Positions 7,444-34,476 of a DNA stretch of 34,476 nucleotides are shown here, piece after piece. The notes under the pieces are model-generated. The model saw nothing but the letters and a program-made list of their open reading frames with translations. It did no database searches and was not told the DNA's origin. Origin of the DNA: a virus; the IMG/VR virus record IMGVR_UViG_3300005002_000001. The stretch is one strand, 5' to 3'. Position 1 is the stretch's first letter. The number at the start of each line of letters is the position of its first letter. The position numbers and the translations under genes are program-made.

Positions 7444-7810
7444 GCGTCGTCGAAACATCGGAAAGTATGAGTCTCCTAAAGCCGGCACTTGCACCTTTAG
7501 AAGCTCTTGGGAGAAAGCTTTCTTCGTCTATTTGGACGCTAATCCCAAAGTCGTAGCTTACGCCTCAGAAGGACTGAAGATTCCGTATGTTTCGAATGTA
7601 CGCACTGGACGCCAAAGAAACTACATTCCTGATTTGCTGGTAACATATGATGACGGTCACCGCGAACTCATTGAAATCAAGCCGAAAAAGCGTCTGACAC
7701 AACCTAAGAACGTCAAGAAGTTTGCTGCTGCTCGAGATTGGTGTTTACGAAACGGCTGCCTCTTTGTACTCCTTACAGAGATCGATCTCAAAGGGTTAGG
7801 ACTCATCTGA
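7388..7810 (+). CDS. PD-(D/E)xK family nuclease with Lys/Arg-rich N-terminus
   Basis: YIPDLLVTYDDGHRELIEIKPKK gives the D...E.K signature of the PD-(D/E)xK fold (TnsA-N/Hjc/T7 endo I-like). The only in-frame starts are ATG 7388 or 7409, so the gene overlaps the methyltransferase 3' end by at least 35 nt. Confidence 0.5.
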   Translation: MLFIRGLMPVKKKKKRRGKRRRNIGKYESPKAGTCTFRSSWEKAFFVYLDANPKVVAYASEGLKIPYVSNVRTGRQRNYIPDLLVTYDDGHRELIEIKPKKRLTQPKNVKKFAAARDWCLRNGCLFVLLTEIDLKGLGLI

Positions 7811-9363: not shown

Positions 9364-12300
9364 TGCGAATTTGTCATATCGCGGATATTCACTGGCGAGG
9401 GTTGACTCGTCACGCTGAATATAAGAAGACGTTCGAAGATTTGGCTAACGATCTTAAGAGCAAGAATGTCGATCTGATCTTTATCGGTGGAGATATCTTC
9501 CACACAAAGACATCGGGCATCAGCCCGGAATATATCGATGCCATGACGTGGTGGTTCGATACATTGGCTAGCATCGCTCCCGTTCACGTGATCCTCGGTA
9601 ATCACGACGGAAACCTCATCAATCTGACGAGGCAGGATGCTATCTCTCCGATTATTTCGGCGCTCAAGTCGAATCGAATCACGCTCTATAAGAAGAGCGG
9701 CGTTTTTCCAATCGCTGCAGGATTCAACTTGTGCGTCTTGAGCGTCTTTGATATCGAGGGCTGGAAGGAAGTCAAGCCTCCCAAAAACGAGATCAACATC
9801 GGGTGTTTTCACGGACCTCTCAGGGGATCCAAATCCGAAGAAGGTTGGGAATTCGATTCTGATCTAGGAGTCGAAGACTTTCGATCGTATGATTTTGTTC
9901 TTCTTGGTGACATTCACGCTCAGCAGTTTTTGGATTACCGTCCCTGCAAGGATGGAACGACGAAGCCGTGGATCGGATATCCCGGTAGCACGATCCAGCA
10001 AAACTACGGAGAGACCATCGACGGTCACGGCTACCTGCTCTGGGATATCAAGTCAGTCGATGATTTCGATGTCGAGTTTGTCAAGCTTCCTAATCATCAT
10101 CCGTTTGTGACTGTCGAGTGGGATGACAATACGAAGAAGGTCTGTCAGAAATATCCGGCTCAATCTAGATTCAGGATTCGAAGCCAATCTCATATCCCTC
10201 AGAAGGATGCGAGAGCCATCACGACATGGCTTCTTAACAGAGGAGCTTTGGAAGTCGTTTTCAAGATCGATCAGGAAAAGTCCAAAGTCCTCCTGGCCGA
10301 AGAAAGCCAACGACTGATCCAGGACGTCAGAAATGTCGATGCTCTTCTGGGCTACATGAAAAAGTACTCAGAGTTTGTGTCGTATACTCTGTCCAAAGAG
10401 GACTGGGCTGAGATCGAAAAGATCGTCCGGAATGCAGTCCAGGGAATTGTTGATGACAATGACGTCGCCCGTCACACGAAATGGACCCTGAAGAGCATGG
10501 AATGGGACAATCTCTTTGCTTACGGAGAGAACAATTCCATCAATTTCTCCAGGCTTAGCGGCGTCGTCGGAGTTCTGGGTCCTAATCGATCCGGAAAATC
10601 ATCGATCGTCGGTACGATGTCCTATGGACTCTTCAATACAACTGACAGAGGCTCGGTAGAAAATCTGAGGGTCGTCAACGAACGAAAACCGTATGGTCTT
10701 GTCAAGATGGACGTTGTTTCCAATCAGGGAGATTACTACCTTGAACGTCAGACCGTCAAGAAAGAAAACAGAAAGGGAGATGTTTCAGCTCCCACTACAT
10801 TGAACTTCTACTCTCGAAATTCGTCTAATAACGATCTTTCTGAGATGAATGGAGAGCAACGCAAGGATACCGAAAAGGTCATTCGAAAGCTGTTGGGTAA
10901 CTTCGACGACTTCCAATTGACAGGTCTGTCTAGACAGGGAGATCTCAATCGATTCATCAATGAGGGATCGACTCAGCGAAAAGCCATCTTGACGAAGTTC
11001 TTGGATCTTGATTACCTCGAGCGCTTGCACGAGACGATCAAGTCTGATATGAACAATCTCAAATACTCTTCGAAGGGTCTGTATGACAATTACGAACTCA
11101 AGATCAAAAATGCCAAAGCTGATCTGACTCGATCTTCTGAGCTTCTTGCTGACAAGGAACTCAAACTCGAAGTTGTCAAATCCAAGATTGATGACCTTAG
11201 AAAAGCATATGCTGATGCTTCTGACGGAGCTCAGCCTGTCACTGCTGAGGATCTGTCGGCGCAGGAAGCTATCGTCAAGAAGTACACTTCTGATCTCAAG
11301 CAGAGAGAAGTCGACATCAAGAGGACCGAGGATCTGATCCTCGGCTTGCAGGATAAACGAGACAAGATCGAAAATCTCGAAAGAGAATACGATCTTGATG
11401 ATCTCAAACGTCAGTATCGAGAGCAGCTTTCGATGGAGACCGAGCTAGCTCAGAAGAAGGCCAAGTATGAGAAGGAGCATGACATCCTTGTAGCCAAGGA
11501 AAAGTCGGCCAAGAAGCTGCTCGAAGTTCCTTGCGGAGATTCCTTTCCGACGTGCAAATATATTCGAGATTCGCACCAGGACAAGCTGACCATCAAGGAG
11601 CAGAAGGCTCGTGCCCGCGAAGCCCTCGACCTTTTGGACTCAGTCAAACGAGCGCTGGTCACCGTCAAAAATCAGAACCTCGGAGACAAGATCAATAAGC
11701 TTGAGAAGCTCAAGCAGGCCCTGGGCACGATCAACATTCAAATCACTGAAAGCGAATCTAAGAAGATCAGATTCGAAAGCGAAGTTCTGACCCTCTCTTC
11801 CAAACTGCAAGAATCTAGTGATCGTCTCGATAGCTTGAAGCTTTCTCTCGTTAGTGATGTTGGTGTCAAATGCTCCAAGATCAAGAAGGAGCTCGAGGTC
11901 CAGCAAGTTTTGTCTGCTTCTCTCGAAAAAGAAGTCCGCAATCTCTACTCGGAAAAAGGAAAGTACGAGCATGAGATGCAAAACATTTTGAAGAATCGAG
12001 AAGAAGCCGAAAAGACCCTGGGCATCATCAAGATCTATGAGTTTGTGACTCAGTCTCTGTCGAAAAAGGGAATCCCTGCTTTGATTCTTCGAAGCCAGCT
12101 TCCCATCATCAACGAAGAAGTGGAAAAGATCTTGCAGGGTACTTTTGATTTCTCCGTCGAGTTTGAGTTGGACGATGATCTGAATTCGATGGATATCGTT
12201 TTGAATTACGGAGATTCGAAGCGTCCCATCGAAATGTGTTCCGGGATGGAAAAGACCATTGCTTCTATCGCTATTCGAGTTGCGTTGATCAATATCACAT

Positions 12301-12512
12301 CTTTGCCCAAACCCGACTTCTTGATTCTAGATGAGGGTTTTGGAACCCTTGATCCGCTGCAGGTCGACCCTTGCGGACGCCTCCTGCAGTCACTCAAAAA
12401 ATTCTTTAGGTTCGTCATGGTTATTACCCACGTCGATCCTCTGAAGGATTATATTGACAACTCGATCGAGGTGACTCGAAAGGAAAAGGATTCGTATGTA
12501 TCTTACGCTTGA
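9363..12512 (+). CDS. fused SbcD(Mre11)-SbcC(Rad50) nuclease-ATPase
   Basis: N-terminal phosphoesterase motifs: IADIHWRG (DxH), GGDIFH (GDxxD-like), LGNHDG (GNHD), GDIHAQ. Then Walker A GVLGPNRSGKSS, a ~350-aa coiled-coil with a central PCGDSFPTC, signature-like CSGMEKT, Walker B FLILDEGFGTLD and H-loop VITHVD. Confidence 0.8.
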   Translation: MRICHIADIHWRGLTRHAEYKKTFEDLANDLKSKNVDLIFIGGDIFHTKTSGISPEYIDAMTWWFDTLASIAPVHVILGNHDGNLINLTRQDAISPIISALKSNRITLYKKSGVFPIAAGFNLCVLSVFDIEGWKEVKPPKNEINIGCFHGPLRGSKSEEGWEFDSDLGVEDFRSYDFVLLGDIHAQQFLDYRPCKDGTTKPWIGYPGSTIQQNYGETIDGHGYLLWDIKSVDDFDVEFVKLPNHHPFVTVEWDDNTKKVCQKYPAQSRFRIRSQSHIPQKDARAITTWLLNRGALEVVFKIDQEKSKVLLAEESQRLIQDVRNVDALLGYMKKYSEFVSYTLSKEDWAEIEKIVRNAVQGIVDDNDVARHTKWTLKSMEWDNLFAYGENNSINFSRLSGVVGVLGPNRSGKSSIVGTMSYGLFNTTDRGSVENLRVVNERKPYGLVKMDVVSNQGDYYLERQTVKKENRKGDVSAPTTLNFYSRNSSNNDLSEMNGEQRKDTEKVIRKLLGNFDDFQLTGLSRQGDLNRFINEGSTQRKAILTKFLDLDYLERLHETIKSDMNNLKYSSKGLYDNYELKIKNAKADLTRSSELLADKELKLEVVKSKIDDLRKAYADASDGAQPVTAEDLSAQEAIVKKYTSDLKQREVDIKRTEDLILGLQDKRDKIENLEREYDLDDLKRQYREQLSMETELAQKKAKYEKEHDILVAKEKSAKKLLEVPCGDSFPTCKYIRDSHQDKLTIKEQKARAREALDLLDSVKRALVTVKNQNLGDKINKLEKLKQALGTINIQITESESKKIRFESEVLTLSSKLQESSDRLDSLKLSLVSDVGVKCSKIKKELEVQQVLSASLEKEVRNLYSEKGKYEHEMQNILKNREEAEKTLGIIKIYEFVTQSLSKKGIPALILRSQLPIINEEVEKILQGTFDFSVEFELDDDLNSMDIVLNYGDSKRPIEMCSGMEKTIASIAIRVALINITSLPKPDFLILDEGFGTLDPLQVDPCGRLLQSLKKFFRFVMVITHVDPLKDYIDNSIEVTRKEKDSYVSYA

Positions 12513-17282: not shown

Positions 17283-18159
17283 TAGCAACAGCAAGACGAA
17301 CAAACATTCCAAGAAGAGGAATGCCGGATTGATGTACGAGTTTCTGCTCCGTACTATCTCTCGTGCCCTCGTTGAAAATGATGGCAAGCGCTCAAACGCC
17401 GCTCTAAAGATCATCAAGAAGCATTTCAAACCCGGAACAGAACTCTATAGAGAGTTTCGTCTTTTCAATTCGTTGATCAAGACGACGGTCAGCAACGATG
17501 CAGTTGCGGTGTCCATTGTCAATGAAGCTAAACTGGCTGCTCGTGCCATTGACATGTCAAAGCTCGAAAGAGAAAAGACGATCGTCATTCACGAAGTCAA
17601 CAAGACGGTAGCTGACGATTCTTTCTACGATCAACCGATCAATGAGTATAAGACTTATGCCACGATCGGAATTCTTTTCACGGCTTGGAGAAATCCCGGA
17701 AAGTACGATCTGTCTAAGATCGTGCAGTATGAAGAGAAGCTGATCGAATGGCTCAGATCCGAAAAGAAGAATCAGGATCAGTTGAACGAGGGAGCCGAAT
17801 CTCCGGGAGTCAATCGTCTCGTCTTCAAGATCATGACGAAGAAGCTCAACGAGAAATATGGCTCGACTCTAGACGAAGTTCAGAAGTCTCTCGTTAGAGA
17901 GTTTGCCCTTTATAGCGTTACGGGCACTGAGAACAATGTCAGAAATAAGTTGGTCGAGATTAGGAATGACCTGGTCGAATCGATCAAATATTCCAGCGGG
18001 CTTCCTGAGCATACCAGCGAAAAACTTCTAGAAGCTCGAAAGATGATCGAGTCTGAAGTCATTACTATGATCGATGACGAGACGGTTTCGAGGTATATGT
18101 CTTACGCCAAATTGGCGAATGAGCTTCGATCTCCGGAGGAAAAGAATGACCAGGCCTAA
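17275..18159 (+). CDS. hypothetical head-module protein (295 aa), possible prohead core component
   Basis: Located between portal and prohead protease (T4 gp67/gp68 position). Likely start is ATG 17275, inside the overlapping GTG ORF. N-terminus contains an L-V-E motif. Confidence 0.4.
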   Translation: MSDSNSKTNKHSKKRNAGLMYEFLLRTISRALVENDGKRSNAALKIIKKHFKPGTELYREFRLFNSLIKTTVSNDAVAVSIVNEAKLAARAIDMSKLEREKTIVIHEVNKTVADDSFYDQPINEYKTYATIGILFTAWRNPGKYDLSKIVQYEEKLIEWLRSEKKNQDQLNEGAESPGVNRLVFKIMTKKLNEKYGSTLDEVQKSLVREFALYSVTGTENNVRNKLVEIRNDLVESIKYSSGLPEHTSEKLLEARKMIESEVITMIDDETVSRYMSYAKLANELRSPEEKNDQA

Positions 18160-18763
18160 GCTGCTAGCGTCTTACGAGACGTTTGAATACACTCCCGAGA
18201 TGCTCAAAGAATCTCGCGAGGCGAATAACGGAAAGATCATCATGAAGGGTATCCTCCAGAAGGCGGACACCCTCAATCAGAATGGTAGGATCTATCCTCG
18301 ACCCATCCTTGAGCGTGAAGTGAGGAACTATCAGAAGTTCATCATCGAAAATCGAGCCCTGGGCGAGTGCGATCACCCTGATAGTTCTGTCATCAATCTG
18401 AAAAACGTTTCTCACATTGTGCGAGAAGCTCATTTCGAGGGTAACACCGTATACGGCACCGTCGAATTGCTTGATACTCCTTCCGGCAAGGTCTTGCAAT
18501 CTCTAGTGGAGTCGGGTGTCAAACTCGGTATCTCTTCTCGAGGAGTCGGTTCGACCAAGAAGACGGGAGACTACTACACGGTTGACGAAGATTTCCAGCT
18601 GATTTGCTGGGACTTTGTTTCTGAGCCTTCTACTCCCGGAGCCTTCATGCTAGCCGAAGGTAAGGACATTTCAGACGCCGAGCTCAAGAAGATTTTCAAT
18701 CGATCTGACAGGGTCGATCGCATCCTGAATGACATCCTCTTTAGCAAGGGAGGCAAACGATAA
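18146..18763 (+). CDS. prohead protease (T4 gp21-like)
   Basis: GGAGG SD before ATG 18146. 205 aa, near gp21 size. GECDHP...GISSRGVGS matches the His/Ser active-site regions of the gp21 prohead protease family. Confidence 0.65.
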   Translation: MTRPKLLASYETFEYTPEMLKESREANNGKIIMKGILQKADTLNQNGRIYPRPILEREVRNYQKFIIENRALGECDHPDSSVINLKNVSHIVREAHFEGNTVYGTVELLDTPSGKVLQSLVESGVKLGISSRGVGSTKKTGDYYTVDEDFQLICWDFVSEPSTPGAFMLAEGKDISDAELKKIFNRSDRVDRILNDILFSKGGKR

Positions 18764-19212
18764 TGCCCGGCTATTATGACGTAGATAAGATCACGCCGTC
18801 CCCGTCGACCCATACTCCCGCTCAACCCGGCTACGGATCCGTTCCGGAATATCAAGCCGCAGGCGTGCCCTGGGTGACAGGCTCTGTCGCTTCTTCCACT
18901 TCTGTAGTGCAAGAATTCAATTTTCCGTACGTAACGAAGAAGATCACCGTCAGGAATCATTCTACTGCCGGCGGTATCAGGGTCGGATTTACGCGTAACG
19001 GTGTGCAAGGATCCAACTATATTCTTGTCGACAATGTCGTCGGGGCTAGTATTGATCTAGATGTTCGTGTCGCTTCCTTGTATATTTTGGGAGTGACTGC
19101 GCCTAGCACATTCAGTATTTTTGCCGGACTGACAGCGATTCCCGCCAAGCACGCTCCTGTTTTGACCGGTTCAGTTTCCGGAACTAACGGATCCTGGCAG
19201 GGAGTTGGATGA
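18763..19212 (+). CDS. hypothetical protein (149 aa)
   Basis: ORF coupled to the protease stop by an ATAATG overlap. Gly/Ser/Thr-rich beta-type composition. Possible head decoration, not supported further. Confidence 0.4.
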   Translation: MPGYYDVDKITPSPSTHTPAQPGYGSVPEYQAAGVPWVTGSVASSTSVVQEFNFPYVTKKITVRNHSTAGGIRVGFTRNGVQGSNYILVDNVVGASIDLDVRVASLYILGVTAPSTFSIFAGLTAIPAKHAPVLTGSVSGTNGSWQGVG

Positions 19213-19679
19213 TCGTCAAGTATCCCAATCAAGTGCTCGCCAAGAGGACGTCAGACATCGAAGCATTTGATGATGAACTCAAGCTGTTTGTCGATCAGAT
19301 GGTTGGTGAGATGTATACGGAGGGAGGAATCGGATTGGCCGCTCCTCAACTCGGGAAATCGATCTCTGTCGTTGTGATTGCTCATCCTAGTCCCGATAGG
19401 GATAATGCTCTCGTGCTTGTCAATCCCAAGCTCAAAATGACAGGAAAAAGAATTCCCTCTAAAGAGGGTTGTCTGTCTATTCCTGGGCAGATGTTCAATG
19501 TCTCTAGATTCTCTTCTGTCGATGTAACCTTTAAGGGAATCGACGGTCAAGAACGACAGCAATCATTTGATGGAGATTTAGCGATTATTGTTCAGCACGA
19601 ATGTGATCACCTCGCAGGAATAACCTTGATCGAAAGGGCAGCGCTCGATCGACGGGCAAAGGCCAAGGGAAGAAAATGA
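19209..19679 (+). CDS. def: peptide deformylase
   Basis: All three PDF motifs are present: GIGLAAPQLG (motif I), EGCLSIPG (motif II), QHECDHLAGI (HExxH, motif III). Confidence 0.85.
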   Translation: MIVKYPNQVLAKRTSDIEAFDDELKLFVDQMVGEMYTEGGIGLAAPQLGKSISVVVIAHPSPDRDNALVLVNPKLKMTGKRIPSKEGCLSIPGQMFNVSRFSSVDVTFKGIDGQERQQSFDGDLAIIVQHECDHLAGITLIERAALDRRAKAKGRK

Positions 19680-22930: not shown

Positions 22931-24835
22931 ATGAGTAAGTTTACGATTGAACAACTGACCGCGGGCATCTCCGACAGGAACCTCGCGGCAGAGAATAACC
23001 GCCTCCTCGAGAAGTGGAGCCGCACGGGTCTTTTGAAGGGACTCGAGGGTACCAAGCGAGAAGTCATGTCTCGACTGCTCGAGAACCAGGCAGCCCAGCT
23101 GCTTCGAGAGTCGAACTCGATCTCGACCGGAGGTGGAGCGATCCAGTCTTCGGGCCAGATCCAGGGCTTCTCGAACATCGCGTTCCCGATCGTTCGCCGA
23201 GTATTCGGTGGCCTCGTCGGTAACGAGCTGATCTCGATTCAGCCGATGAGTCTCCCGTCCGGACTGATCTTCTACCTCGATTACACCTACGGCTCGAACG
23301 TCGGTGGAGACGCTGGTTTCGGTCTCGACAACAACTCGGCCAACGAGACGTATACCCGAGGAACGTCCATCTATAACAACCCGACTGGTAAGGGCGTCCG
23401 ATCCGGATCTCTCGCCGCGGGTGGTATGTACGACCTCATGGGTGCTGGATACACCCGTCTGCACCAGCAGACGACCGCCATCTCCATGTCCAATGCGGAC
23501 ATCGGATCTTGGTCGGGTGCCAACGAAGCTTGGTCGGCCGGTACCGTCATGACTTCCGATGTTGCCTTTACGGGCACCAACGGTCGCAACGGCGGATACG
23601 ATGTCGACGTCGCTCTGGCCCTCCAGAACAATACTCTTGACGCAGTCTTTGCGCACGCTCCGGTCTCGCAGTTTACTGCAGCCCTGTCCAAGATGGATAC
23701 TCTTGCGGTCGATCAGATCGCGGTATTCAGCTTCGGAGCCGGAAACAACGGCGGAGCCGTTGCTTGGGGCGAGGCCTTCCAGGGCGGAACGGGAGTTCTA
23801 AACCTCCGTCGCGCCACCCGACGTGGTAACTGGAACGGCAGTGTCTTCACCCCCGATCCTCTCAATGGATCGCACTATCAGTTCCTTGTTCGTCTGAACA
23901 ACGGCGGAACCGCTCCGTCGGGTACCTCCAACCTCCGTATCACGGCCTCCGTGGTTCTGAGCGATGCACTCGAAGTTGACTCTTCCTCCGGCGCGACGAC
24001 CACGATCCCGTCCTTCGAAACGGATTTCGGAACGTCACCGCTTCCGACGATCCCCGAGATCGACATCAAGATCGAGTCGATCGCAATCACGGCGGTCACC
24101 CGCAAGCTCAAGGCCAAGTGGTCTCCTGAGCTCGCCCAGGACCTCAACGCGTACCACACGATGGACGCCGAGGTCGAGCTGACCCAGATCCTTTCCGAGC
24201 AGATCGCTCTGGAAATCGACCGCGAGGTTCTCAACGACTTGCTCACTCAGGCTAACGGTGCGAACTTCTTCTGGTCGAAGGCTCCGGGACGCTTCCTGGA
24301 CAAGTACACCGGTCGTCCGCAGACCCTTTCCTCGGCTCTCGCCATCGGCCCGTCCTTCACCGGTACGGTTCGTGAATGGTACGAGACCCTGGTCGAGACG
24401 GTCATCGACGTCGCGAACACCATCCACCGCAAGACCCTCCGCGGCTCTGCTAACTTCGTAGTTACCAGCCCGGATGTCTGCACCCTCCTCGAAGCCTCGG
24501 TCCTTTACAAGCCGAAGTACTCCCTGGACGGTGAAGGACAGGTTTCCACTCCGTTTACCATCGGTGCTGAACCGGTCGGTACTCTGAGTAACCGATTCAC
24601 GGTCTACAAGGACCCGTACTTCCCCCGTAACAAGATCCTCGTCGGATTCAAGGGCGGAAGCTACCTCGAGACGGGATATGTGTACGCTCCGTACGTACCG
24701 CTCATCGTCACGCCGACGATCTTCGCTCCCGAAGATTTCACTCCGCGTAAGGGCGTCATGACCCGATACGGTAAGAAGATGGTGCGAACCGACTTCTACG
24801 GTACGGTCACGGTCCTCGACATGAATATCCGCTAA
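22931..24835 (+). CDS. major capsid protein (T4 gp23-like)
   Basis: Last gene of the head module, with an AGGAG SD and a strong intrinsic terminator after it. 634 aa. N-terminal ~60-aa helical segment with (L/I)xE motifs consistent with a protease-removed propeptide. Confidence 0.65.
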   Translation: MSKFTIEQLTAGISDRNLAAENNRLLEKWSRTGLLKGLEGTKREVMSRLLENQAAQLLRESNSISTGGGAIQSSGQIQGFSNIAFPIVRRVFGGLVGNELISIQPMSLPSGLIFYLDYTYGSNVGGDAGFGLDNNSANETYTRGTSIYNNPTGKGVRSGSLAAGGMYDLMGAGYTRLHQQTTAISMSNADIGSWSGANEAWSAGTVMTSDVAFTGTNGRNGGYDVDVALALQNNTLDAVFAHAPVSQFTAALSKMDTLAVDQIAVFSFGAGNNGGAVAWGEAFQGGTGVLNLRRATRRGNWNGSVFTPDPLNGSHYQFLVRLNNGGTAPSGTSNLRITASVVLSDALEVDSSSGATTTIPSFETDFGTSPLPTIPEIDIKIESIAITAVTRKLKAKWSPELAQDLNAYHTMDAEVELTQILSEQIALEIDREVLNDLLTQANGANFFWSKAPGRFLDKYTGRPQTLSSALAIGPSFTGTVREWYETLVETVIDVANTIHRKTLRGSANFVVTSPDVCTLLEASVLYKPKYSLDGEGQVSTPFTIGAEPVGTLSNRFTVYKDPYFPRNKILVGFKGGSYLETGYVYAPYVPLIVTPTIFAPEDFTPRKGVMTRYGKKMVRTDFYGTVTVLDMNIR

Positions 24836-25701: not shown

Positions 25702-27315
25702 ATGAGTAGATCATTCCTTAGGCAAGCAACGCAGATTTCGGCATCTGTTGATTTTACGGACGCCCTTGCAGCGGGTCTGTCTCTACAGTCTTCCTCTTAT
25801 ACGTTAGAAGACGATCTCAATGCTGTTAGATCTCAGCTACGCCGTATCCTGTACTCGACATCTTCCAACGGCAAGTGGTATGATGACGTACCGTCCACTA
25901 CTCTCGGCGGCCCTCGCGGTCTCTTCCAACTCGGAGGAGATCTCGAAGACCTCGAACGTAAGCGACTAGTCTATCGAGTCCAGAAGAACACTATCGGGCT
26001 TCAAGTTCCGATCGGTCAGAACTATGTGACTCTGTCCGTCGGCGCGGGTTTTGCTCCTGGCTTCTTGGCGGCCGTCTCTACTGCCATGACAGGCACTGTC
26101 GTTTCCCTATTGTCTGGTTCGCAATACAATGTTCACAGCATGGAACTGCAGTCAGGTTCGAATGCTTTAGTTCCGAAGAATCTTGTTGTCGTCGTCTCGG
26201 CCTCAACGGGCAATCCGATTCAATCTGATAATGGACAGGGCTTTGACGTTTATGCATTGCTCCAAGCCTCGGGTTCTGTAGCAGATGGTGATACTTTTGA
26301 CGATGTCACCAAGCGCGTGCAGTTGTCCTTCGTCAAGTCCAATCCTTCCCGAACCGGTCTCGTTTCGGCTTCTATCGCCGATATCGAAGGTCGATTCATC
26401 CAATACTCTTACACTCGTCGAGTAGCCCTCGATGAGATTCCGGACGACGCGTATCTGGATGGTGTCTTCGTCGACGTCATTGCTGATATTTCGGCGACCG
26501 TTGCCGCGGCTCTCTCTTCTCTGTCGGCTTCGGTCTCCCTCGATTCTGCGATCGACAGTCAGGTCGGACCTGCCACGCAGACAGACAGAAACATTGTCGT
26601 TCGTATCTCGTCTCCTTATCAGTGGGCCTTTGCTAATTCCGCCGGAACTCGTCACTTCTTCCAGGCTGATGCCGCTTCGGCTAGCATCAGTTTCGACATC
26701 GATAGTTTTACGGTCAACAATGTCAATACTGCGAACTTCCTCAATGCGGTACGTACCTCTGTCTCGGGTAACTGGGTCCAGATGGGTGCCGGGCAGGTGC
26801 AGTCTTCGGGTACGTTGCTTGTCAACTCGGCGACGGGATCGAATCTGATTCTATCGGGTGGTAACTTCCTTGTCATGGTCGACGGCAACAAACAATTCTC
26901 AACTTACACTAACGACTTTGTGCTAGCTGACAGCGTTAGTGATTGGAATCAGTATGTCACTAGCTTCGGTCAGATTTCCCTGTTCGATGCTTTGCAGTTC
27001 CTGTCCCAGTCGATCACCGGCGCCAAGGGTCAGCTCAAGGCGACGGCCGTCGTTACAGCAAACAATGTCAACGCCAATGTCAATGTAACGTATCCAACTA
27101 ATTTGGACGCTCCGCTATTGAATTTCGCCGCGTATCCCTCAGCTTCATTCGTTAGCGGAGTTAACGTGTACGTTAACGGACAATTGGTTCGAGGCGCTTC
27201 AAACGGCGGTGAAAATCATGATGTATATCCGGGAGACAACTTGTCGACAGGAGATCTGAAATTCGAATTCAAACTTCATCGTGACGATGTCATTACGATG
27301 ATCATTCCTAACTGA
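25702..27315 (+). CDS. hypothetical structural protein (537 aa)
   Basis: ORF with an SD-like GGGGAAAAG. Ser/Ala/Val/Thr-rich beta composition. No catalytic motifs. Confidence 0.45.
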   Translation: MSRSFLRQATQISASVDFTDALAAGLSLQSSSYTLEDDLNAVRSQLRRILYSTSSNGKWYDDVPSTTLGGPRGLFQLGGDLEDLERKRLVYRVQKNTIGLQVPIGQNYVTLSVGAGFAPGFLAAVSTAMTGTVVSLLSGSQYNVHSMELQSGSNALVPKNLVVVVSASTGNPIQSDNGQGFDVYALLQASGSVADGDTFDDVTKRVQLSFVKSNPSRTGLVSASIADIEGRFIQYSYTRRVALDEIPDDAYLDGVFVDVIADISATVAAALSSLSASVSLDSAIDSQVGPATQTDRNIVVRISSPYQWAFANSAGTRHFFQADAASASISFDIDSFTVNNVNTANFLNAVRTSVSGNWVQMGAGQVQSSGTLLVNSATGSNLILSGGNFLVMVDGNKQFSTYTNDFVLADSVSDWNQYVTSFGQISLFDALQFLSQSITGAKGQLKATAVVTANNVNANVNVTYPTNLDAPLLNFAAYPSASFVSGVNVYVNGQLVRGASNGGENHDVYPGDNLSTGDLKFEFKLHRDDVITMIIPN

Positions 27316-27337
27316 CGCTATCGTCTGATTAACTGGC

Positions 27338-27372
27338 GGGGTTCATGTTGTAAAATGTCAACATGAACCCCG
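27338..27372 (+). promoter_or_regulatory. 12-bp perfect inverted repeat spanning the start codon of gene 27363
   Basis: cggggttcatgt - 11-nt loop - acatgaaccccg. The ATG at 27363 lies inside the 3' arm. No T-tract follows. Confidence 0.4.
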
Positions 27373-27881
27373 AGAAGTCTGAGATGAAACTCATCGTGCT
27401 GCAGACGCACGGCGAGAAAGTCGAATACAAAATGGAGCAGCATCGCCTTGAAATCATGGCGACGGAAGCCGCTTTGAAGGCTCTGACGCTAGCTCGGGAA
27501 GAACATCAGAAGATCTCGATCAATATCGAGTCCGAAGTAAAAGCGGGATTGTTATCACCCGCGCATGCTGTCATTGCTAAGAAATATACGAAGAAATGTT
27601 CTGACTTTGTCGACAACTTTATCAAGGGTACCGAGATCAAGCTTTTTATGGCTAAGGGAAAGCTTGAAGCTTTGCAGGAAGTTGTCGGGGTTCTGAGAGC
27701 CGACAGAGACGAAGAACGTAAAAAACTAGATGGATTCCGACAGTCTCAAGAACGAGCCATCGAACAGATTGAGTCAGAGGCCGAGTCTAAGGCAGAATCC
27801 GACCCTCCAGTGACACCCAAAAAATCCCGAAAAATAAGGGAAGATGTGGCCAGGTCTTTGGACATACCTAATAAAAAGTAA
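27363..27881 (+). CDS. coiled-coil protein (172 aa)
   Basis: ORF with heptad-like Glu/Lys/Ala-rich sequence. TAATG overlap with the next gene. Possible fibre assembly or chaperone role, not supported further. Confidence 0.4.
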   Translation: MNPEKSEMKLIVLQTHGEKVEYKMEQHRLEIMATEAALKALTLAREEHQKISINIESEVKAGLLSPAHAVIAKKYTKKCSDFVDNFIKGTEIKLFMAKGKLEALQEVVGVLRADRDEERKKLDGFRQSQERAIEQIESEAESKAESDPPVTPKKSRKIREDVARSLDIPNKK

Positions 27882-28525
27882 TGCCGCAGACACCCGATCG
27901 TCATCCAGGTAGGTTCTTCGAAGATGAATCTATCAATTTAGGAACCGCATCTCTCGATGATCCCATCGAAGATGGCACGTTTCGTTACGTCTCAGGTTCG
28001 GGCTATCGATTTCGGGAGCAAGGTTTTATTCGAACCTTGCAACCCTATAGCAATCCGACAGGAAGTTTCCCTCCGACGCCTTTCGACGATATCACAAAGA
28101 ATTACGATAGGGGTTCAACCTGGATCGTTAGCGGAACTCAAAAGATATATGTGCTCATTGATCCAACATCGGGATCAGCGATTTGGAAGGACATAACATC
28201 AGCATCTTCAGGATTGAGTGCCGACGATCACAAATCCTTGAGGCATCTAATTCATTTTTTGAATGAAGGACCCGGCGACGGATTCTATCCAAATCCATTT
28301 AGAGAGATTTCTGGTGGCGTATTTCCAACTCGAGTCACTTGGTGGACAGATGCGAACAAAACATTGCGTCTGTTTCAAACTGAGATAACGAGATCGGGTA
28401 TTTATCCGATAACCGAATCGCATAAAATGTTCGCATCCGATGGCATCACTATTTTGGCGTCAGCAAAGGACGTGATTACTTACAACGGCGTATTTGAAAT
28501 GGCGAGATCGAGGTCGTTTGCATGA
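27881..28525 (+). CDS. tail-fibre module protein, paralogue A (214 aa)
   Basis: C-terminal ~90 aa (RVTWWTDANKTLRLFQ...DGITILASAKDVITYNGVFEMARSRS) is homologous to the C-terminus of the next ORF. Confidence 0.45.
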   Translation: MPQTPDRHPGRFFEDESINLGTASLDDPIEDGTFRYVSGSGYRFREQGFIRTLQPYSNPTGSFPPTPFDDITKNYDRGSTWIVSGTQKIYVLIDPTSGSAIWKDITSASSGLSADDHKSLRHLIHFLNEGPGDGFYPNPFREISGGVFPTRVTWWTDANKTLRLFQTEITRSGIYPITESHKMFASDGITILASAKDVITYNGVFEMARSRSFA

Positions 28526-29019
28526 GACATTCTCCGGCAGCAGTCTTAGTCGATGTAACAGGTAGTCAAGTTGGTACTCCCGTCAATCCCTTTTACATTT
28601 CAGGATCCCTTTCATTTCCCGGTATCAATATTGTTAACAACGTCTACACATTTGATACCGGAGCTCCTGTTGTTGTCACGACGCCTTCATCATCGTTGTC
28701 CGCTTCTCAAGTGCACGAGATTTTAAGAGAGCTAGTGCATCTAGATGATTCGAATGGACCCCGTGGCCAATATTGGTCGACCGGTCTAGTGTCAGACACT
28801 CATAACTCTCCATTTCCTACAGCTAGCATTTGGTGGACTGATTCATCTCGTACTCAAAAAGTTGTAGAATGTTTAGTGACGAGAAACTCCAGAAGATTGC
28901 CCGTCACTATCCAATGGAAAGCATATCTTTCGGATGGAATCACGGTGGCTGAATCTTATACAGATACGATTACATACTCAGGAGTCTTTGAGACGTCTAG
29001 AACTAGGAATCAACCATGA
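28522..29019 (+). CDS. tail-fibre module protein, paralogue B (165 aa)
   Basis: ASIWWTDSSRTQKVVECL...DGITVAESYTDTITYSGVFETSRTR is paralogous to ORF 27881. N-terminus MRHSPAAVLVDVTGSQVG resembles the N-terminus of ORF 29016. ATGA overlap. Confidence 0.45.
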   Translation: MRHSPAAVLVDVTGSQVGTPVNPFYISGSLSFPGINIVNNVYTFDTGAPVVVTTPSSSLSASQVHEILRELVHLDDSNGPRGQYWSTGLVSDTHNSPFPTASIWWTDSSRTQKVVECLVTRNSRRLPVTIQWKAYLSDGITVAESYTDTITYSGVFETSRTRNQP

Positions 29020-29897
29020 ATAGTCCGGCTTCGATTCTATTTGATATCAACGGAAATCCGGTTGGCGTTTCTGGGAGCATGCCTCTGCCGACCGGCTCGA
29101 TTGGTCAATTGCTTGCGGGAGTTGATCAAAGCGGCAACGTTCGTTATCTAAATTTCATTTCTAGCAGCATCATGGTCACGGGCTCTCTGGGTCTGGTTGG
29201 ATCGTCTATCGTCACGGGCTCGATCGCTGTTTCTAATTTTCCGTCTGTGCAAGTTGTCACTGGTAGCGTTTTGACGATTCCCACAGGTACGCAGACGGTC
29301 GCTGGAACAGTAACGTCTGTCATTACAGGAACTCTTCAGACGTCGGTAACCAACTTTCCAGCAGTGCAGACTGTCACGGGTTCCGTTTCTATTACCGGGC
29401 AGCCTGTTACCGTCAATGGAACGGTTAATTCTGTCATTTCTGGTACCTTAACGGTGACCACGACAGGATCTTTGCCTGTTTCGATTCTGAATATTCCGAC
29501 GGTCACAGGATCGGTCGGCATTACAAATTTTCCAATAGTTCAAACTATAACAGGAACTGTCGCTCTAACGGCTCAGCCGATTATAATCACGACGACAGGA
29601 TCGCTGCCGACGCTACATCGTAGGTCATCTTTGGCTTCGACGTCGTCTGTCAATGCTTCGAATTCGACTTCTCAAATTTTGCTGAGTTCGAGTTTGAACA
29701 GACTTCAAGGTTTAGTCTTTAACGATTCAACCGGTCAGCTGTACGTAACTTTGGGATCCTCTTCTTCAACAACTTCATTTACTGTGCGTCTAGACTCTCG
29801 TGGATACTACGAAATTCCTATTTACTATATCGGAGTCGTATCTGGAATTTGGTCGAACAATAACGGAGCAGCTCGAATGACGGAGATTAATCTCTAA
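29016..29897 (+). CDS. tail-fibre protein with NFPxxQTxTGSV repeats (293 aa)
   Basis: Repeated units SNFPSVQVVTGSV, TNFPAVQTVTGSV and TNFPIVQTITGTV, plus (L)PTGTQTVAGTVTSVITGT modules shared with the downstream 931-aa gene. Thr/Ser/Gly/Val-rich. Confidence 0.55.
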   Translation: MNSPASILFDINGNPVGVSGSMPLPTGSIGQLLAGVDQSGNVRYLNFISSSIMVTGSLGLVGSSIVTGSIAVSNFPSVQVVTGSVLTIPTGTQTVAGTVTSVITGTLQTSVTNFPAVQTVTGSVSITGQPVTVNGTVNSVISGTLTVTTTGSLPVSILNIPTVTGSVGITNFPIVQTITGTVALTAQPIIITTTGSLPTLHRRSSLASTSSVNASNSTSQILLSSSLNRLQGLVFNDSTGQLYVTLGSSSSTTSFTVRLDSRGYYEIPIYYIGVVSGIWSNNNGAARMTEINL

Positions 29898-32692
29898 TGC
29901 CTCTATATCCTTCTTTTCCTGATATTCAAACCGTTGTCGTAACCGGGTCTGTCGTCACGACAGCTGTGCAATCCGGATCGTATACAGTCGTAATCAGCGG
30001 TACGCAAGTCGTGACGGGCACGGTCGCTTTGACTGCCCCCGTCATCGTGTCTAATTTTCCAGTGACACAAACAATCACTGGTTCTGTTTCTCTAAGCCAA
30101 CCCGCTGCTGTTTCGGTATCCAACTTTCCAGGAACCCAGATCGTCGCCGGCACGGTCACGTCCGTCATCACCGGCACGGTGCAGACCGCAGTCACGAATC
30201 AGGTGACTGTCACGACTACTGGCTCGTTGCCTGTTACTTTTTCGGGAGTAACGACAATCACTGGAACGGTTCTGGCGCTGCCCACAGGAGTTCAGACGAT
30301 CGCTGGCACCGTTAACGCAGCCATTACGGGAACCGTCAATGTCTCGACGGTCGGCACGACGACCGTCGCGGGAACCGTGACTTCTGTCATCACTGGCACG
30401 GTCAACACCAACGTTACGAATTTCCCGGCTACCCAGACAATTACTGGATCGGTAGGAATTACGAATTTCCCGGCTACCCAGATAATTCAAGGCGCCGTTT
30501 CAATTGGAAATGTTGTCGCTGTTACGTCGACGGGCTCGTTGCCTGTCACTGTAATGAGCAATTTCCAGACGTCGGTAACTAGTTCTTTGAGCGCGCTTAA
30601 TCAGACGGTCACCATTGTTTCAAATAATTCTCTTGTCGTTGGTGGGTCGATCAGAGGAACTTGGGTCGGTACGATTACAGCTGAAGGTACTGTCAACGGA
30701 CAGGATTGGTTTACTGTTCGAACAGCTAATAAATCGACTAATGACATTGTGCAGACTTATACTGCTAATGACGATTTCGAGTTTTACTCAGTTGGAGGCT
30801 GCACTCAACTCAGAGTTAGGATGTCAGCCTTTACCTCGGGCTTGGCAACGATTACGCTTGTCGGAACCAATTCAACATCAGCCGAACTACTCAATTATTC
30901 GGGCCCGGACGCCGACGCTGCTCCGCCCCTAAGACATCTTAGTTTTGCCACTTTGGCAGAAGATGGTACTCTTCGAGCTCTTCGTCAGTTGAGTACTGCC
31001 CCGACGGGCTCGACATTTGCATTGCCGACTAGAGCAGCTAGCTATAGCGACGGTCGAGATGGATATCAACCTGAAGGTGCTTCAACGACATCTACGGGTC
31101 CGGCCCAAACGCACATTGACCCGGACGGTCGTGCTCAAACTTATTCTTCTGTTTTGACAAACGAAGGATCATTTCGAGATGATTTTGTAGGAGGAACTCT
31201 TAATACCCGTTGGACTTCTTCAACCGCGACAGGAGGAACTGTCGGCACTCCAACAAACTCTACAGTCACTATTGCTACGACAACGACCAACGGTTCAGCC
31301 GCCAGCATTTATGATGCTGTGACTGCAGACGTCGGACCAATGACATTTACTGCATATGCTAGCGTCAGCGGTCGATTTGCAAATCGAACGATAATTCTCG
31401 GAATGGCTGAATCTAACAGCGTTAGTTCCCCCGGCGCGGGAGCTTATTTTTCGTTGACAGGAACGACGGCGACTCAAATCACATGCGTTAGCGCCGCTTC
31501 CGCGGCGGCAGCCGATCAACAAACGACGACTGTGACTCTGCCCAACGGACTCGATACTTCGACATCATTGCGTTATAAGGTCGACGTTAGCGCGACCCAG
31601 GTAACGTTTTCTATCGGAACGGGCTCGGGAGACGACGTTATCGTTGCTCGTCATCAACTTCACATTCCGCTAGATGTCAGCTTGCTTGGATCCATTGTCG
31701 GAGCTCGCAATACGGGAGCCACCACCGCTGCATCCATTGTTTTGGATGGCGTGTATTTTGCGAACTGGAATCGTTTGCAAATCGATACTGACTATATCGG
31801 AGAACCACTCCAGGTTACGCTTCCAAACACCCCTAGCGTGTCGACAGGTAACCTAGGATCGCTTAATGCTGCGGTTACTATTCCGGTAGGTACCGGAAAC
31901 TCGATCGGAATGTCTTTGTCGGCAGGAACGTTGATCGGTACAATCGCAGTTGAAGTTTCTTTCAATGCTGGATCGGCTTGGGAAGCGTCCACATTCAATG
32001 GTCAGACTGCTGGTCGCGACACGACTATTGTTTTTACTAGCGCCAATACGGCACAAAATAGAACGATCCCTCTTCCGGGAGGAGCAACTCACGTTCGAGT
32101 TAGAGTATCAGCTTTCACATCGGGCACCGCATCTTGTGAGCTCCGATCTCTGAACAATAGTGAGCTCGGAGTTTCAATCCTTCAAGGTACTCGGGCATCG
32201 TACGTTGTCGGTGTCAGTGGACAGGCAAATACTGCAGCATCACACGCGATTGTAATTGAAGCTAGCTCAACCAAACGAATCTTGGTTCGTAAATTGATCA
32301 TCATGCATCCAGGTACTCAAACGACTGCAGGATTGAGAACCATGGTGCTCGAGCGTACCTCAGGCGCGGGCACGGGTGGTACGATCACGTTCGAACCTAA
32401 CGGTTCTGCCTCTTCATTTATTTCGCGAATGGATACTAAGGACCCGACATTTGGTGGAATCTGCCGCGCTAAGCCTACCGCGTTGGGAACGCAGAGTACG
32501 ACCTTATGGCTGGCGACAGTTTTTGTCCCAACGGCGCTGGCGGCGTTCGTCCCGGTTCAATACGACTTCGAGGCAATCTTTGGGAAGCCGTTTGTGATCC
32601 AACCCGGAACCACGAATGGAATTGCTTTGAGAGACCTTGGCGCCGCGGGCGCTGCTAACTTCGCCGCGCAGATTGTGTTCACAGAGGAATGA
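29897..32692 (+). CDS. large tail-fibre / receptor-binding protein (931 aa)
   Basis: N-terminal third is built from the same NFPxTQTITGSV and AGTVTSVITGTV repeat units. Two internal paralogous ~150-aa domains (TQLRVRMSAFTSGLATITLVGTNSTS vs THVRVRVSAFTSGTASCELRSLNNS). TAATG coupling to the upstream gene. Confidence 0.6.
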   Translation: MPLYPSFPDIQTVVVTGSVVTTAVQSGSYTVVISGTQVVTGTVALTAPVIVSNFPVTQTITGSVSLSQPAAVSVSNFPGTQIVAGTVTSVITGTVQTAVTNQVTVTTTGSLPVTFSGVTTITGTVLALPTGVQTIAGTVNAAITGTVNVSTVGTTTVAGTVTSVITGTVNTNVTNFPATQTITGSVGITNFPATQIIQGAVSIGNVVAVTSTGSLPVTVMSNFQTSVTSSLSALNQTVTIVSNNSLVVGGSIRGTWVGTITAEGTVNGQDWFTVRTANKSTNDIVQTYTANDDFEFYSVGGCTQLRVRMSAFTSGLATITLVGTNSTSAELLNYSGPDADAAPPLRHLSFATLAEDGTLRALRQLSTAPTGSTFALPTRAASYSDGRDGYQPEGASTTSTGPAQTHIDPDGRAQTYSSVLTNEGSFRDDFVGGTLNTRWTSSTATGGTVGTPTNSTVTIATTTTNGSAASIYDAVTADVGPMTFTAYASVSGRFANRTIILGMAESNSVSSPGAGAYFSLTGTTATQITCVSAASAAAADQQTTTVTLPNGLDTSTSLRYKVDVSATQVTFSIGTGSGDDVIVARHQLHIPLDVSLLGSIVGARNTGATTAASIVLDGVYFANWNRLQIDTDYIGEPLQVTLPNTPSVSTGNLGSLNAAVTIPVGTGNSIGMSLSAGTLIGTIAVEVSFNAGSAWEASTFNGQTAGRDTTIVFTSANTAQNRTIPLPGGATHVRVRVSAFTSGTASCELRSLNNSELGVSILQGTRASYVVGVSGQANTAASHAIVIEASSTKRILVRKLIIMHPGTQTTAGLRTMVLERTSGAGTGGTITFEPNGSASSFISRMDTKDPTFGGICRAKPTALGTQSTTLWLATVFVPTALAAFVPVQYDFEAIFGKPFVIQPGTTNGIALRDLGAAGAANFAAQIVFTEE

Positions 32693-33663
32693 TGAGTAAT
32701 ACGCTTTATCTAACGTATCATACGTTTAAGTTCACTGCAGAAAATTTGCCTGTGTATTGGACTTTGGACGGCGATGTTTATCATATTGTCTGTGTTAGAG
32801 ACGGTCGTCTATTCATTTCTAGAGCTAGTGATGATGATGTAGTCGATTTTGAACTTTGGAAAGATGACGAGAAAGAGTGTTCATCGTTAGATGATGCCTG
32901 TGCCATGGCTTTGGTTTCTCCTCTTTCTCCTTCTCCCAAGATGAAGCTTGATTGCCCATCGGAACAAGATAAGAAGCCAATTGTCACTATTTCTCCCGCG
33001 ACCGAAGGATTTGTAACCTGGATAACTGGCGCAGGCGACGATGCCGAAGCCCAATTTCCAGAATCAGGACGCGGAACAGGTACCCCCTTTGTTCTATCTT
33101 TTTCGGAAGATGAGGTACCTTGTACTAAAACGCTTGAATTCGATTTTATTGAACCGGTAGAAGTACATGACGGGCAAGTCTCTTGGAGACAACCCCAAAA
33201 CTGGGGATCACAAGATAGTTTTTCTTTGGGACTGAGAATTCCTTCGTCGTCTGTTAATCTGAATACGTCTTCTCTTGGTAATTGCAACAAAATTCCTATC
33301 GGACCAGAAATGAACATGATCGTTCCTGCCGCAGGAGACGGTCAATATGATCTGATCGAAGCCTGTCCTGTGCAAGATAGACAAAATCAGGGAGGCTTTT
33401 GGGATAATGAGTATGCCACAGGTGTGGTGACTCCAAATTCTGTTCCAGGAAAAGGACTGTGGAATCTTTTTGATTTTGAGATAACAGGTTGGCTAATCAA
33501 AAACATTCCGATGACTCATCCTATGGGTGTTTTTGACATCGACGTCTATAAAACTGAATACTTTCACCCGTCATGGTATCTGACATGGAGAGTCAATAAG
33601 CAAACGCCTGGCGCCGGGGATGTCTCTGGGTGGATTTTCTGCTTTAGACGGTTTGTAACTTAG
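32689..33663 (+). CDS. hypothetical tail-fibre-associated protein (324 aa)
   Basis: ATGA-coupled to the fibre gene. Trp/Asp-rich beta composition. Candidate distal adhesin or assembly factor by position only. Confidence 0.4.
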   Translation: MMSNTLYLTYHTFKFTAENLPVYWTLDGDVYHIVCVRDGRLFISRASDDDVVDFELWKDDEKECSSLDDACAMALVSPLSPSPKMKLDCPSEQDKKPIVTISPATEGFVTWITGAGDDAEAQFPESGRGTGTPFVLSFSEDEVPCTKTLEFDFIEPVEVHDGQVSWRQPQNWGSQDSFSLGLRIPSSSVNLNTSSLGNCNKIPIGPEMNMIVPAAGDGQYDLIEACPVQDRQNQGGFWDNEYATGVVTPNSVPGKGLWNLFDFEITGWLIKNIPMTHPMGVFDIDVYKTEYFHPSWYLTWRVNKQTPGAGDVSGWIFCFRRFVT

Positions 33664-33669
33664 GATTTT

Positions 33670-34476
33670 ATGAGAGCGTTAGTTTTATCGGGCGGGGGCT
33701 CTAAGGGATCTTTTCAGATCGGTGTTTTGAAGAAGTTAGTCGAATCTGATCCGAAAGGATACGATCTGATCTGCGGAGTATCAGTAGGAGCGATCAATGC
33801 TTCTGGTCTGGCGATGTATCATAAGTCGGACTATCCAAGTGCCGTCGCTTACATGGAGAAGCAGTGGAGAGAAAAAGTTCGAACTGATGTCATCTATAAG
33901 AGTTGGTGTCCTTTCGGTAAAGTATCCGCCCTTTGGAAGAAGTCTGTTTACGACTCATCGCCGCTTAAGAAATTTATGTATGAAAACATGGACCTGACTC
34001 GAATCAGAGCTTCAGGAGTCAAAGTGGCTGTTGGAGCTGTGTCACTCGAAACGCAAGAGTTCAGATTAGGCACTCAAGATGATGACAACTTGATCGATTG
34101 GGTGCTAGCGTCGTCCAGCTTTCCGATCTTCATGACTCCTGTCGATATCGAAGGACAGTCCTGGTCCGATGGCGGAATTAGATCGACGACTCCCCTCGGC
34201 CACGCCATCAAATCAGGCGCTGACGAAATTGATGTCGTCTTGTGCTACGATCCGGATGTGGAAACGACGAGCTGGAATTCCGAATCGGAAGTCGCCATCC
34301 CGGATCAGTTGATCAGAGTTTTGGGAATCATGTCCGATCAGATTGCATTGGCTGATCTCAAGTTGGCGGGTCTGAAAAATGAATTGGTGCAGATCAACGA
34401 CAAGTATCGAAAGATCAAAATGAAGGTCTATTGCCCGGACAAATACGTTCCTGTGTCAGATTCTTTGACATTTGAT
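33670..34476 (+). CDS. patatin-like phospholipase (3' end truncated by the window)
   Basis: LVLSGGGSKGSFQIG (GGGxKG oxyanion/Gly-rich motif, as in ExoU GGGAKG). GVSVGAINA (GxSxG nucleophile elbow). SWSDGGIRST (DGG catalytic Asp). ORF stays open to the last base of the window. Confidence 0.75.
   Translation, partial: MRALVLSGGGSKGSFQIGVLKKLVESDPKGYDLICGVSVGAINASGLAMYHKSDYPSAVAYMEKQWREKVRTDVIYKSWCPFGKVSALWKKSVYDSSPLKKFMYENMDLTRIRASGVKVAVGAVSLETQEFRLGTQDDDNLIDWVLASSSFPIFMTPVDIEGQSWSDGGIRSTTPLGHAIKSGADEIDVVLCYDPDVETTSWNSESEVAIPDQLIRVLGIMSDQIALADLKLAGLKNELVQINDKYRKIKMKVYCPDKYVPVSDSLTFD

Follow-up and report, generated by a model that had tools for sequence, protein, structure and literature searches.

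The window analysed here is the whole 34,476-nucleotide (nt) stretch of the IMG/VR virus record IMGVR_UViG_3300005002_000001, and it ends within a gene for a patatin-like lipid acyl-hydrolase that lies on the plus strand at positions 33670 to 34476. The reading frame starts with an ATG at 33670 and stays open to the window end, covering codons 1 to 269 of 291. Its translation contains the GGGSKG oxyanion-hole/phosphate-binding loop (residues 8 to 13; 33691 to 33708), the GVSVG nucleophile elbow (residues 36 to 40; 33775 to 33789, with the TCA codon of Ser38 at 33781 to 33783), and the DGG motif with the catalytic Asp167 (residues 167 to 169; 34168 to 34176), all on the plus strand. An AGGA ribosome-binding site (33662 to 33665, plus strand) is located 4 nt 5′ of the ATG and overlaps the TAG stop codon (33661 to 33663) of the preceding gene, which encodes a 324-amino-acid (aa) protein. 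The intergenic gap is 6 nt, which leaves no room for a promoter dedicated to the patatin gene. In the window as a whole, the T4-type late promoter TATAAATA has 0 copies, a scan for sigma-70 promoters returned sites no commoner than in shuffled sequence, and terminator-like sites are about twice as frequent as in the shuffled controls (18 versus a mean of 9.2).

Full length and enzymatic identity of the patatin

The 3′ end of the gene was obtained from locus L001 (JGI 3300005039 Ga0068519_1000211, 9768 bp), which was retrieved via the exact sequence of the 324-aa neighbour protein, is identical to window positions 29702 to 34476, and extends 4993 bp beyond the window. The full gene occupies L001 3969 to 4844; its stop codon is reached 69 nt after the last window position (34545 in window numbering) and overlaps the start of the next gene by 1 nt (L001 4844). 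The full-length protein of 291 aa is acidic (pI, or isoelectric point, 5.1; 32 kDa), no signal peptide or membrane segment was found in it, and its strongest hydrophobic window is formed by the core strand and helix around Ser38. An earlier note on this DNA had described the motifs GGGxKG, GxSxG, and DGG in this order and a gene running off the window, and both descriptions are confirmed. It had also supposed that a C-terminal part with a regulatory or targeting function was cut off; the window lacks no more than the last 22 residues, and the 291-aa gene in L001 rules out a hidden C-terminal domain.

The Pfam profile PF01734 (Patatin) matches the window open reading frame (ORF) over positions 1 to 191 of 191 with an expect value (E) of 1.1e-30 and 107.7 bits (gathering score 27.7). 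PlpD is the best PDB match by sequence (E 1.8e-7), with CapE and CapV weaker, and in the phmmer alignment to PlpD, GVSVGA pairs with GTSMGA and DGG with DGG. In two alignments of relatives (n=32 and n=49; 43 to 98% identity), Gly8, Gly9, Gly36, Gly40, and Gly168 are invariant, as is the Ser38-Asp167 dyad, and position 12 of the GGGSKG loop is conserved as K or R in at least 90% of the sequences. An AlphaFold model was built for P0001, a full-length protein 98% identical to the window patatin, with 49 relatives as input, and reached a predicted local distance difference test (pLDDT) score of 85 and a predicted template modelling (TM) score (pTM) of 0.86. The structural comparison proposed in the earlier note was run with Foldseek and recovered the patatin fold in the PDB. 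AbCapV is the top match (3e-13), and PlpD (9e-13; TM 0.71), the potato patatin Pat17 (TM 0.68), and CapE also match; for CapV, PlpD, and Pat17, the E values span 1e-12 to 1e-13 and the TM scores 0.6 to 0.7. Similarity to ExoU and VipD is weak (TM 0.29 to 0.48). Among predicted viral structures, the best matches are giant-virus patatins, a protein of Rhodothermus phage RM378, and an “RssA” of an uncultured tailed phage. The ratio of nonsynonymous to synonymous substitution rates (dN/dS) of the gene is 0.047 to 0.10 in comparisons with three relatives, similar to that of the capsid protein (0.055 and 0.074); the gene is under purifying selection. The call of a patatin-type lipase thus stands, and the ORF is very probably the 5′ 92% of the gene for a 291-residue, single-domain, soluble patatin-type serine-aspartate lipid acyl-hydrolase of an uncultured huge T4-like myophage. 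To judge from patatins of solved structure, Gly8-Gly9 and Lys12 would form the oxyanion/phosphate-binding loop, and Ser38 of GVSVG would attack the acyl ester bond of a glycerolipid, with Asp167 of DGG serving as the general base.

Membership in the CapV or ExoU families is not borne out. The score against the NCBIfam model NF041079 (CBASS_lipase) is 58.9 bits, versus a cut-off of 200 (E 4.8e-16), and covers residues 2 to 179 only; likewise, the alignments to the PADLOC models of phospholipase effectors of cyclic-oligonucleotide-based antiphage signalling systems (CBASS) (E 4.8e-18) are confined to residues 1 to 180. No CD-NTase cyclase or other defence gene is present in the window, in L001, or in the contexts examined in detail. 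CapV and CapE (PDB 9jeh, 8zr9, and 9ion) have the fold and the catalytic motifs in common with the phage patatin and are its top fold and profile matches, but the phage protein falls under the cut-off, has no cyclase partner, and is 30 to 60 residues shorter. With NF007623 (RssA/YchK), the score is 23.9 bits against a cut-off of 272. The large C-terminal membrane-localization/cofactor region of ExoU- and VipD-type proteins has no counterpart in the 291 aa, which hold no extra domain, and the holin-like membrane protein and ankyrin protein that flank the patatin in the putative lytic cassette of phage WO are not found beside the gene. On the basis of the curated cut-offs and gene context, membership in the CBASS, RssA, and ExoU groups was rejected. 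In the patatin domain of Pseudomonas aeruginosa PlpD (PDB 5fqu and 5fya), the motifs align and the TM score is 0.71 over about 290 columns; however, PlpD, as a type Vd autotransporter, exports its lipase through an attached barrel, whereas the phage protein is a free domain of 291 residues with about 21% identity to it.

A word-indexed search yielded 1639 patatin relatives, and the best 120 of these are 257 to 441 aa long (nearly all 283 to 304), 43 to 98% identical to the window protein, and have PF01734 as their sole domain. In a scan of 1.84 billion representatives, 309 clusters (50% identity) were detected at E≤1e-30 and 2299 at E≤1e-10, and at least 125 viral contigs in IMG/VR carry a relative, with family contigs of up to 620 kb. 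Across 185,579 bacterial and archaeal species (one genome each), identity does not exceed 38% even for the best matches. The three top cellular matches with readable neighbours (L091 to L093) are contigs of about 170 to 256 kb from metagenome-assembled genomes (MAGs), and because L092 and L093 share gene families with the phage loci, some of the best cellular matches are probably mis-binned phage. In practice, the family is virus-specific.

Several variants of the protein were observed in individual loci. In L089 (10001 to 10999; 33% identity), the patatin domain contains a strongly hydrophobic, membrane-hairpin-like insertion of about 55 residues at approximately residues 78 to 134. Two paralogues per phage are found in tandem in L038 (about 9968 to 11750) and a few genes apart in L018 (10001 to 13152). 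In L174 (558 to 1952; P0090), a single reading frame joins patatin to the 162-aa protein encoded directly after it in the phage studied here. The fusion junction, GAT TTA ACG ATG, is one T off a TAA stop and occurs on a single contig; either a genuine fusion or a fault of the assembly could account for it, and it carries little weight as Rosetta-stone evidence.

The fibre-like array and the position of the patatin gene

The region upstream of the patatin gene is an array of fibre-like paralogues on the same strand. Its conserved part (27881 to 29386, plus strand) comprises the 214-aa gene, the 165-aa gene, and the N-terminal part of the 293-aa gene and is followed by a hypervariable cassette (29387 to 33668, plus strand) that contains the C-terminal part of the 293-aa gene, the 931-aa gene (29897 to 32692), and the 324-aa gene (32689 to 33663). 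The 214-aa and 165-aa proteins have a common C-terminal domain (38% identity; E 5e-19), and the N-terminal motif SPAAILFDxxGNPVG, in looser form SPAxxLxDxxGxxVG, occurs in 10 fibre-like paralogues, including the 165-aa and 293-aa proteins, versus 0 of 1640 other ORFs; the 931-aa protein contains four NFPxTQ repeats. These features suggest that the array genes encode putative tail, neck, or head fibres.

Nucleotide homology to the relatives L171, L010, and L002 ends at approximately 29386, 29111, and 28554, that is, inside the 293-aa gene or just upstream of it, and restarts at 33669/33670, the patatin start codon. Flank identity of the window to the three relatives is 87 to 93%, 78 to 82%, and 78%; within the cassette, only two short patches (70 to 78% identity) to L171 and L010 are left, and close relatives have 250-, 600-, and 274-aa genes in its place. 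Because homology breaks off in this manner and restarts at its ATG, patatin is the first backbone gene after a swapped, host-range-like cassette. The two sides of the cassette also differ in divergence from L171: to the left (window 25702 to 29019), the genes are 100% identical with almost no synonymous change, whereas to the right, the synonymous divergence (dS) climbs from 0.22 in patatin to 1.3 in the neck gene. This contrast marks the cassette as the site of a recent recombination breakpoint.

In some relatives, other genes are located beside patatin. A protein of about 395 aa with an N-terminal signal peptide and lipobox cysteine (e.g., MKKAFVSLLMFVVVFVLSCADH) is encoded directly upstream of patatin, after the fibre genes, in L002 (8795 to 9982), L007 (8750 to 9937), L084, and L088; it has no match in Pfam or NCBIfam and, by analogy, this exported lipoprotein could be a receptor-masking protein like T5 Llp. 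GIY-YIG genes are inserted beside patatin in L003, L079, and L080. In L062 (3909 to 4844), and also in L052, L057, L061, L063, L068, and L090, a conserved protein of about 310 aa is encoded between the fibre array and patatin; it is without a Pfam or NCBIfam match, and its sequence pattern looks like that of a glycoside-hydrolase-type barrel.

ORFs were called and clustered by BLAST in 94 loci (the window, encoding contigs, the IMG/VR set, and four MAG contigs). The patatin gene is on the same strand as the fibre-like array and at its 3′ end, and at least one fibre-like paralogue is found within 8 kb upstream in 55 of the 65 distinct loci with enough upstream sequence; the placement of the gene directly after fibre-like genes, as first described for the window, where the 324-aa gene ends 6 nt before it, therefore extends to its relatives. 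On its downstream side, three unrelated arrangements occur: neck genes, as in this phage; a set of HNH and cold-shock genes; and more fibre genes including PF23140 (Gp80), which are near patatin only in relatives and only in this one context. In L001 and relatives, the downstream region encodes a T4 gp13-like neck protein, a gp15-like protein, and two sheath-like proteins of about 1000 aa. The downstream proteins of 162, 120, and 163 aa and a minus-strand 162-aa protein have no membrane segment and no Pfam or PHROG match. A conserved unit of patatin and a downstream partner was considered and rejected, the immediate downstream families (c18, c3, c37, and c7) having no profile-profile similarity, and c18, c28, and c6 still adjoin the neck gene in L179, a phage without patatin. 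The link to the fibre array holds only for the patatin family at about 33% identity or higher. Rhodothermus phage RM378 is the sole isolated tailed phage with a detectable homologue (Rm378p022; 27% identity, E 1e-11), and it also has a related capsid protein, but Rm378p022 has 321 aa, is annotated as hypothetical, and is situated among replication genes rather than after fibre genes; the neighbourhoods of such distant homologues, in RM378 and in LR756508 (27% identity), differ from the fibre-array setting.

The gp13-like neck protein served as the anchor of a second scan, which covered loci with at least 7 kb of upstream sequence (n=34). Patatin is present in 5 of the 34, and its status as a core gene of the clade was rejected. 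In the non-redundant gp13-anchored loci, patatin is present in four and absent from one of those with the fibre array, versus present in one and absent from 23 of those without it (Fisher p 0.001, uncorrected for phylogeny). By hand inspection, L179 has neither array nor patatin yet keeps the three small genes that follow patatin in this phage, and L238 has the array without patatin. In Flavobacterium phage immuto, a 546-aa gene at the position of the window's 537-aa gene is followed almost directly by the neck gene. Since most relatives that share the neck and sheath genes lack patatin, it is not needed for particle assembly; it is an accessory gene that travels with the fibre-like array.

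Possible roles of the phage patatin

With no room for its own promoter, a 6-nt gap upstream, and a stop/start overlap downstream, the patatin would most likely be made late, together with the fibre-like array. A functional link to the fibre/host-recognition module is indicated by the fixed position of the gene, the strand that it shares with the array, its tight coupling to neighbours, its location at the edge of the cassette, and its joint occurrence with the array. The earlier note had raised a virion enzyme, a lysis or superinfection factor, and a hijacked defence effector as hypothetical roles; the data favour a tie to the fibre module and speak against a hijacked CBASS effector. We infer that the enzyme is an accessory of this module and would cleave acyl chains of host envelope lipids (outer-membrane phospholipid or lysophospholipid) in connection with adsorption and penetration. 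It would do so either as a particle-borne enzyme or by attacking the envelope of infected cells and of their debris. An envelope-lipid hydrolase serving the fibre/host-recognition module in adsorption and penetration, or acting on the envelope in some receptor-related manner, is the role that we tentatively favour, although we do not put it at an even chance. In a narrower version, the lipase would travel on the virion together with the fibre apparatus, or be set free from it upon adsorption, and its local digestion of outer-membrane lipid would let the very large tail breach the envelope; this version appears rather unlikely.

A number of observations weigh against the entry role. The patatin has no recognizable virion-attachment domain and is without the N-terminal motif of the fibre paralogues, and most relatives that share the neck and sheath genes do without it. 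The fibre-like “family” is a heterogeneous, single-linkage BLAST cluster, and the statistical association of array and patatin ignores kinship. Searches with the 214-, 165-, 293-, 931-, and 324-aa proteins in PHROG, Pfam, PDB sequences, and phage records (tblastn) gave no match to a known fibre family, and the AlphaFold model of the 214-aa paralogue is poor (pLDDT 60), its fold search being uninformative. What the earlier note had called a tail-fibre operon is therefore fibre-like in its NFPxTQ repeats, its paralogues with a shared N-terminal motif, and its cassette swapping, but is not tied to a known fibre family, structure, or isolated phage. Nor was a close relative of the patatin found in a cultured phage, the tblastn matches among 50,697 phage records all being under 32% identity. 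Non-virion genes, such as the 395-aa lipoprotein and GIY-YIG endonuclease genes, can fill the slot 5′ of patatin in relatives, HNH and cold-shock genes follow it in one subclade, and the position may be a cargo hot-spot. Finally, the insertion in L089 suggests action at the cell membrane from the inside.

A possible alternative, nearly as likely as the favoured entry role, is that the enzyme helps lysis: made late and harmless in the cytoplasm, the lipase would wait until holin and endolysin give access to the envelope and would then hydrolyse membrane phospholipids, for example, in the inner leaflet of the outer membrane. The presumed co-transcription with late genes, the missing signal peptide, the membrane-type insertion in one homologue, and the dispensability for particle building are consistent with this. 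Lysis genes follow tail-fibre genes in many phages, and lipolytic lysis enzymes exist, with an experimental precedent in mycobacteriophages, where LysB finishes lysis; LysB has a cutinase-like fold and is a functional analogue only, not a patatin homologue. In Wolbachia phage WO, a conserved patatin at a fixed position beside tail and tail-fibre genes, a placement like that in the huge-phage family, has been proposed to be the lytic enzyme of a “patatin-based lytic cassette,” its function being inferred (PMC9203015). However, WO is a small temperate phage whose patatin is beside a holin-like membrane protein and an ankyrin protein, whereas in this huge T4-like phage of lytic type the gene follows a hypervariable fibre array and has neither partner. 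No WO record is among the tblastn matches at E≤1e-5 in the 50,697 phage records, the inclusion of WO in that collection being unchecked. No holin-like, spanin-like, or endolysin gene adjoins patatin in the window or L001, and the four downstream protein families lack a membrane segment. In L007, a peptidoglycan peptidase is encoded about 8.5 kb upstream of patatin with the fibre array between them, so patatin is no endolysin replacement there. A lysis role also leaves the co-occurrence of array and patatin unexplained.

It is improbable that the gene is auxiliary metabolic or virulence cargo (a “moron”) that releases fatty acids to fuel the long infection by a huge phage or alters the interaction of the host with a eukaryote. 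This is the published reading for other phage patatins: in the marine megaphage Mar_Mega_1 and in LR745206, a patatin-like phospholipase known from annotation was called an auxiliary metabolic/virulence gene and the first phage patatin (PMC9723777), and in Burkholderia prophages, patatin genes were described as morons (PMC2920897). The varied cargo in the neighbouring slot of relatives and the accessory status within the wider clade agree with it, but the family is old, with 309 clusters at the 50% identity level, and virus-specific, no cellular relative exceeding 38% identity, which argues against recent pick-up from a host, and its strand and position are fixed relative to the fibre array in three genomic contexts, unlike those of scattered cargo. 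No other lipid-metabolism genes were found near patatin, and in T4-like phages of presumably lytic type, a role in host virulence would be unlikely. Mar_Mega_1 resembles the present case as an uncultured phage with a very large genome; its report (PMC9723777) gives no gene context, whereas the family described here is defined by the link to the fibre array. LR745206 is not among the tblastn matches at E≤1e-5, and its patatin therefore probably belongs to a different subfamily. Very improbable is a captured defence effector, i.e., a CapV-like lipase without cyclic-nucleotide control that serves superinfection exclusion or counter-defence. CBASS phospholipase effectors are the best NCBIfam and PADLOC matches and AbCapV the top Foldseek match, but the similarity stays far under the curated cut-off (58.9 versus 200 bits) and is limited to the catalytic half (residues 1 to 180), the contexts examined hold no CD-NTase or other defence gene, and PlpD and potato patatin match as well as CapV, which indicates likeness to a shared fold. 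Extremely improbable, finally, is an acyl-transferase or esterase that matures or lipidates the fibre proteins and does not act on host lipids. Tight adjacency to and co-occurrence with the array would suit such an enzyme, and the patatin fold includes transacylases and has kinship to acyl-transferases, malonyl-CoA:ACP transacylase appearing in the fold search at only E 0.08. However, the patatin is conserved while the adjoining fibre genes swap, which is atypical for fibre chaperones or modifiers, its motifs are those of hydrolytic patatins, and we know of no phage precedent for a patatin-type fibre-modifying enzyme.

Phage patatins have been known since at least 2010-2011 (Burkholderia prophages and phage WO), with a megaphage case in 2021, and patatins are common in giant viruses. 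We found neither this particular family nor its association with a hypervariable fibre array described in the literature. To our knowledge, no phage patatin has an experimentally tested function. The family is a clean target for such a test: the protein is one small, soluble domain whose catalytic residues are clear, natural variants number in the hundreds, the gene keeps a constant place beside the host-recognition genes of huge phages, and relatives offer natural presence/absence contrasts. If it serves entry, lipid hydrolysis would join the phage tools for crossing the Gram-negative envelope; if it serves exit, it would be a third route of outer-membrane disruption besides spanins and disruptin; and either role would give it potential use as an envelope-active enzyme. 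A particle-borne entry lipase would give tailed phages their first entry enzyme of the phospholipase type, specific to a large clade of uncultured huge phages and a functional counterpart of the capsid phospholipase of parvoviruses. The latter, the phospholipase A2 domain of VP1 (VP1u), is a particle-borne entry enzyme with a secretory phospholipase A2-like fold and is no patatin homologue. Should the gene be cargo only, its description would be routine annotation.

Source phage and further genes of the window

The patatin is phage-encoded, as had been assumed from the start, since the window carries genes for a large terminase, a portal, a T4 gp23-like capsid protein, and a prohead protease; it also encodes a primase-like protein, a fused Mre11-Rad50-like protein, a peptide deformylase, and homing endonucleases. 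No nucleotide-level relative of the window is found among the 50,697 phage records. The nearest capsid proteins are those of an uncultured 484-kb phage, Flavobacterium phage immuto, a Microcystis phage, and Rhodothermus phage RM378, and patatin-bearing relatives are found on contigs of 240, 324, 357, and 620 kb. The gene content indicates that the source is an uncultured huge T4-like myophage. No tRNA genes, which could hint at the host, were found in the window.

Some further genes are unusual in their architecture or position. A single 1049-aa ORF (9363 to 12512) combines an N-terminal Mre11/SbcD-type phosphoesterase with a Rad50/SbcC-type structural maintenance of chromosomes (SMC) ATPase, which are usually encoded as separate genes. 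The peptide deformylase gene (19209 to 19679; E 2.8e-40) is situated in the head-morphogenesis block between the prohead protease gene (18074 to 18763) and the capsid gene (22931 to 24835); the latter encodes 634 aa, of which only residues 352 to 617 (approximately) are covered by the gp23-type profile, leaving an N-terminal extension of about 350 residues. Two mobile-endonuclease-type genes, at 1673 to 2374 and 7388 to 7810, encode a GIY-YIG and NUMOD3 homing endonuclease and a protein with a TnsA-like endonuclease domain. In L007 (17624 to 20644 and the next gene) and L002 (15986 to 18988 and the next gene), tandem genes for proteins of about 1000 aa match the tail-sheath C-terminal domain and would represent an unusual doubled, oversized sheath.

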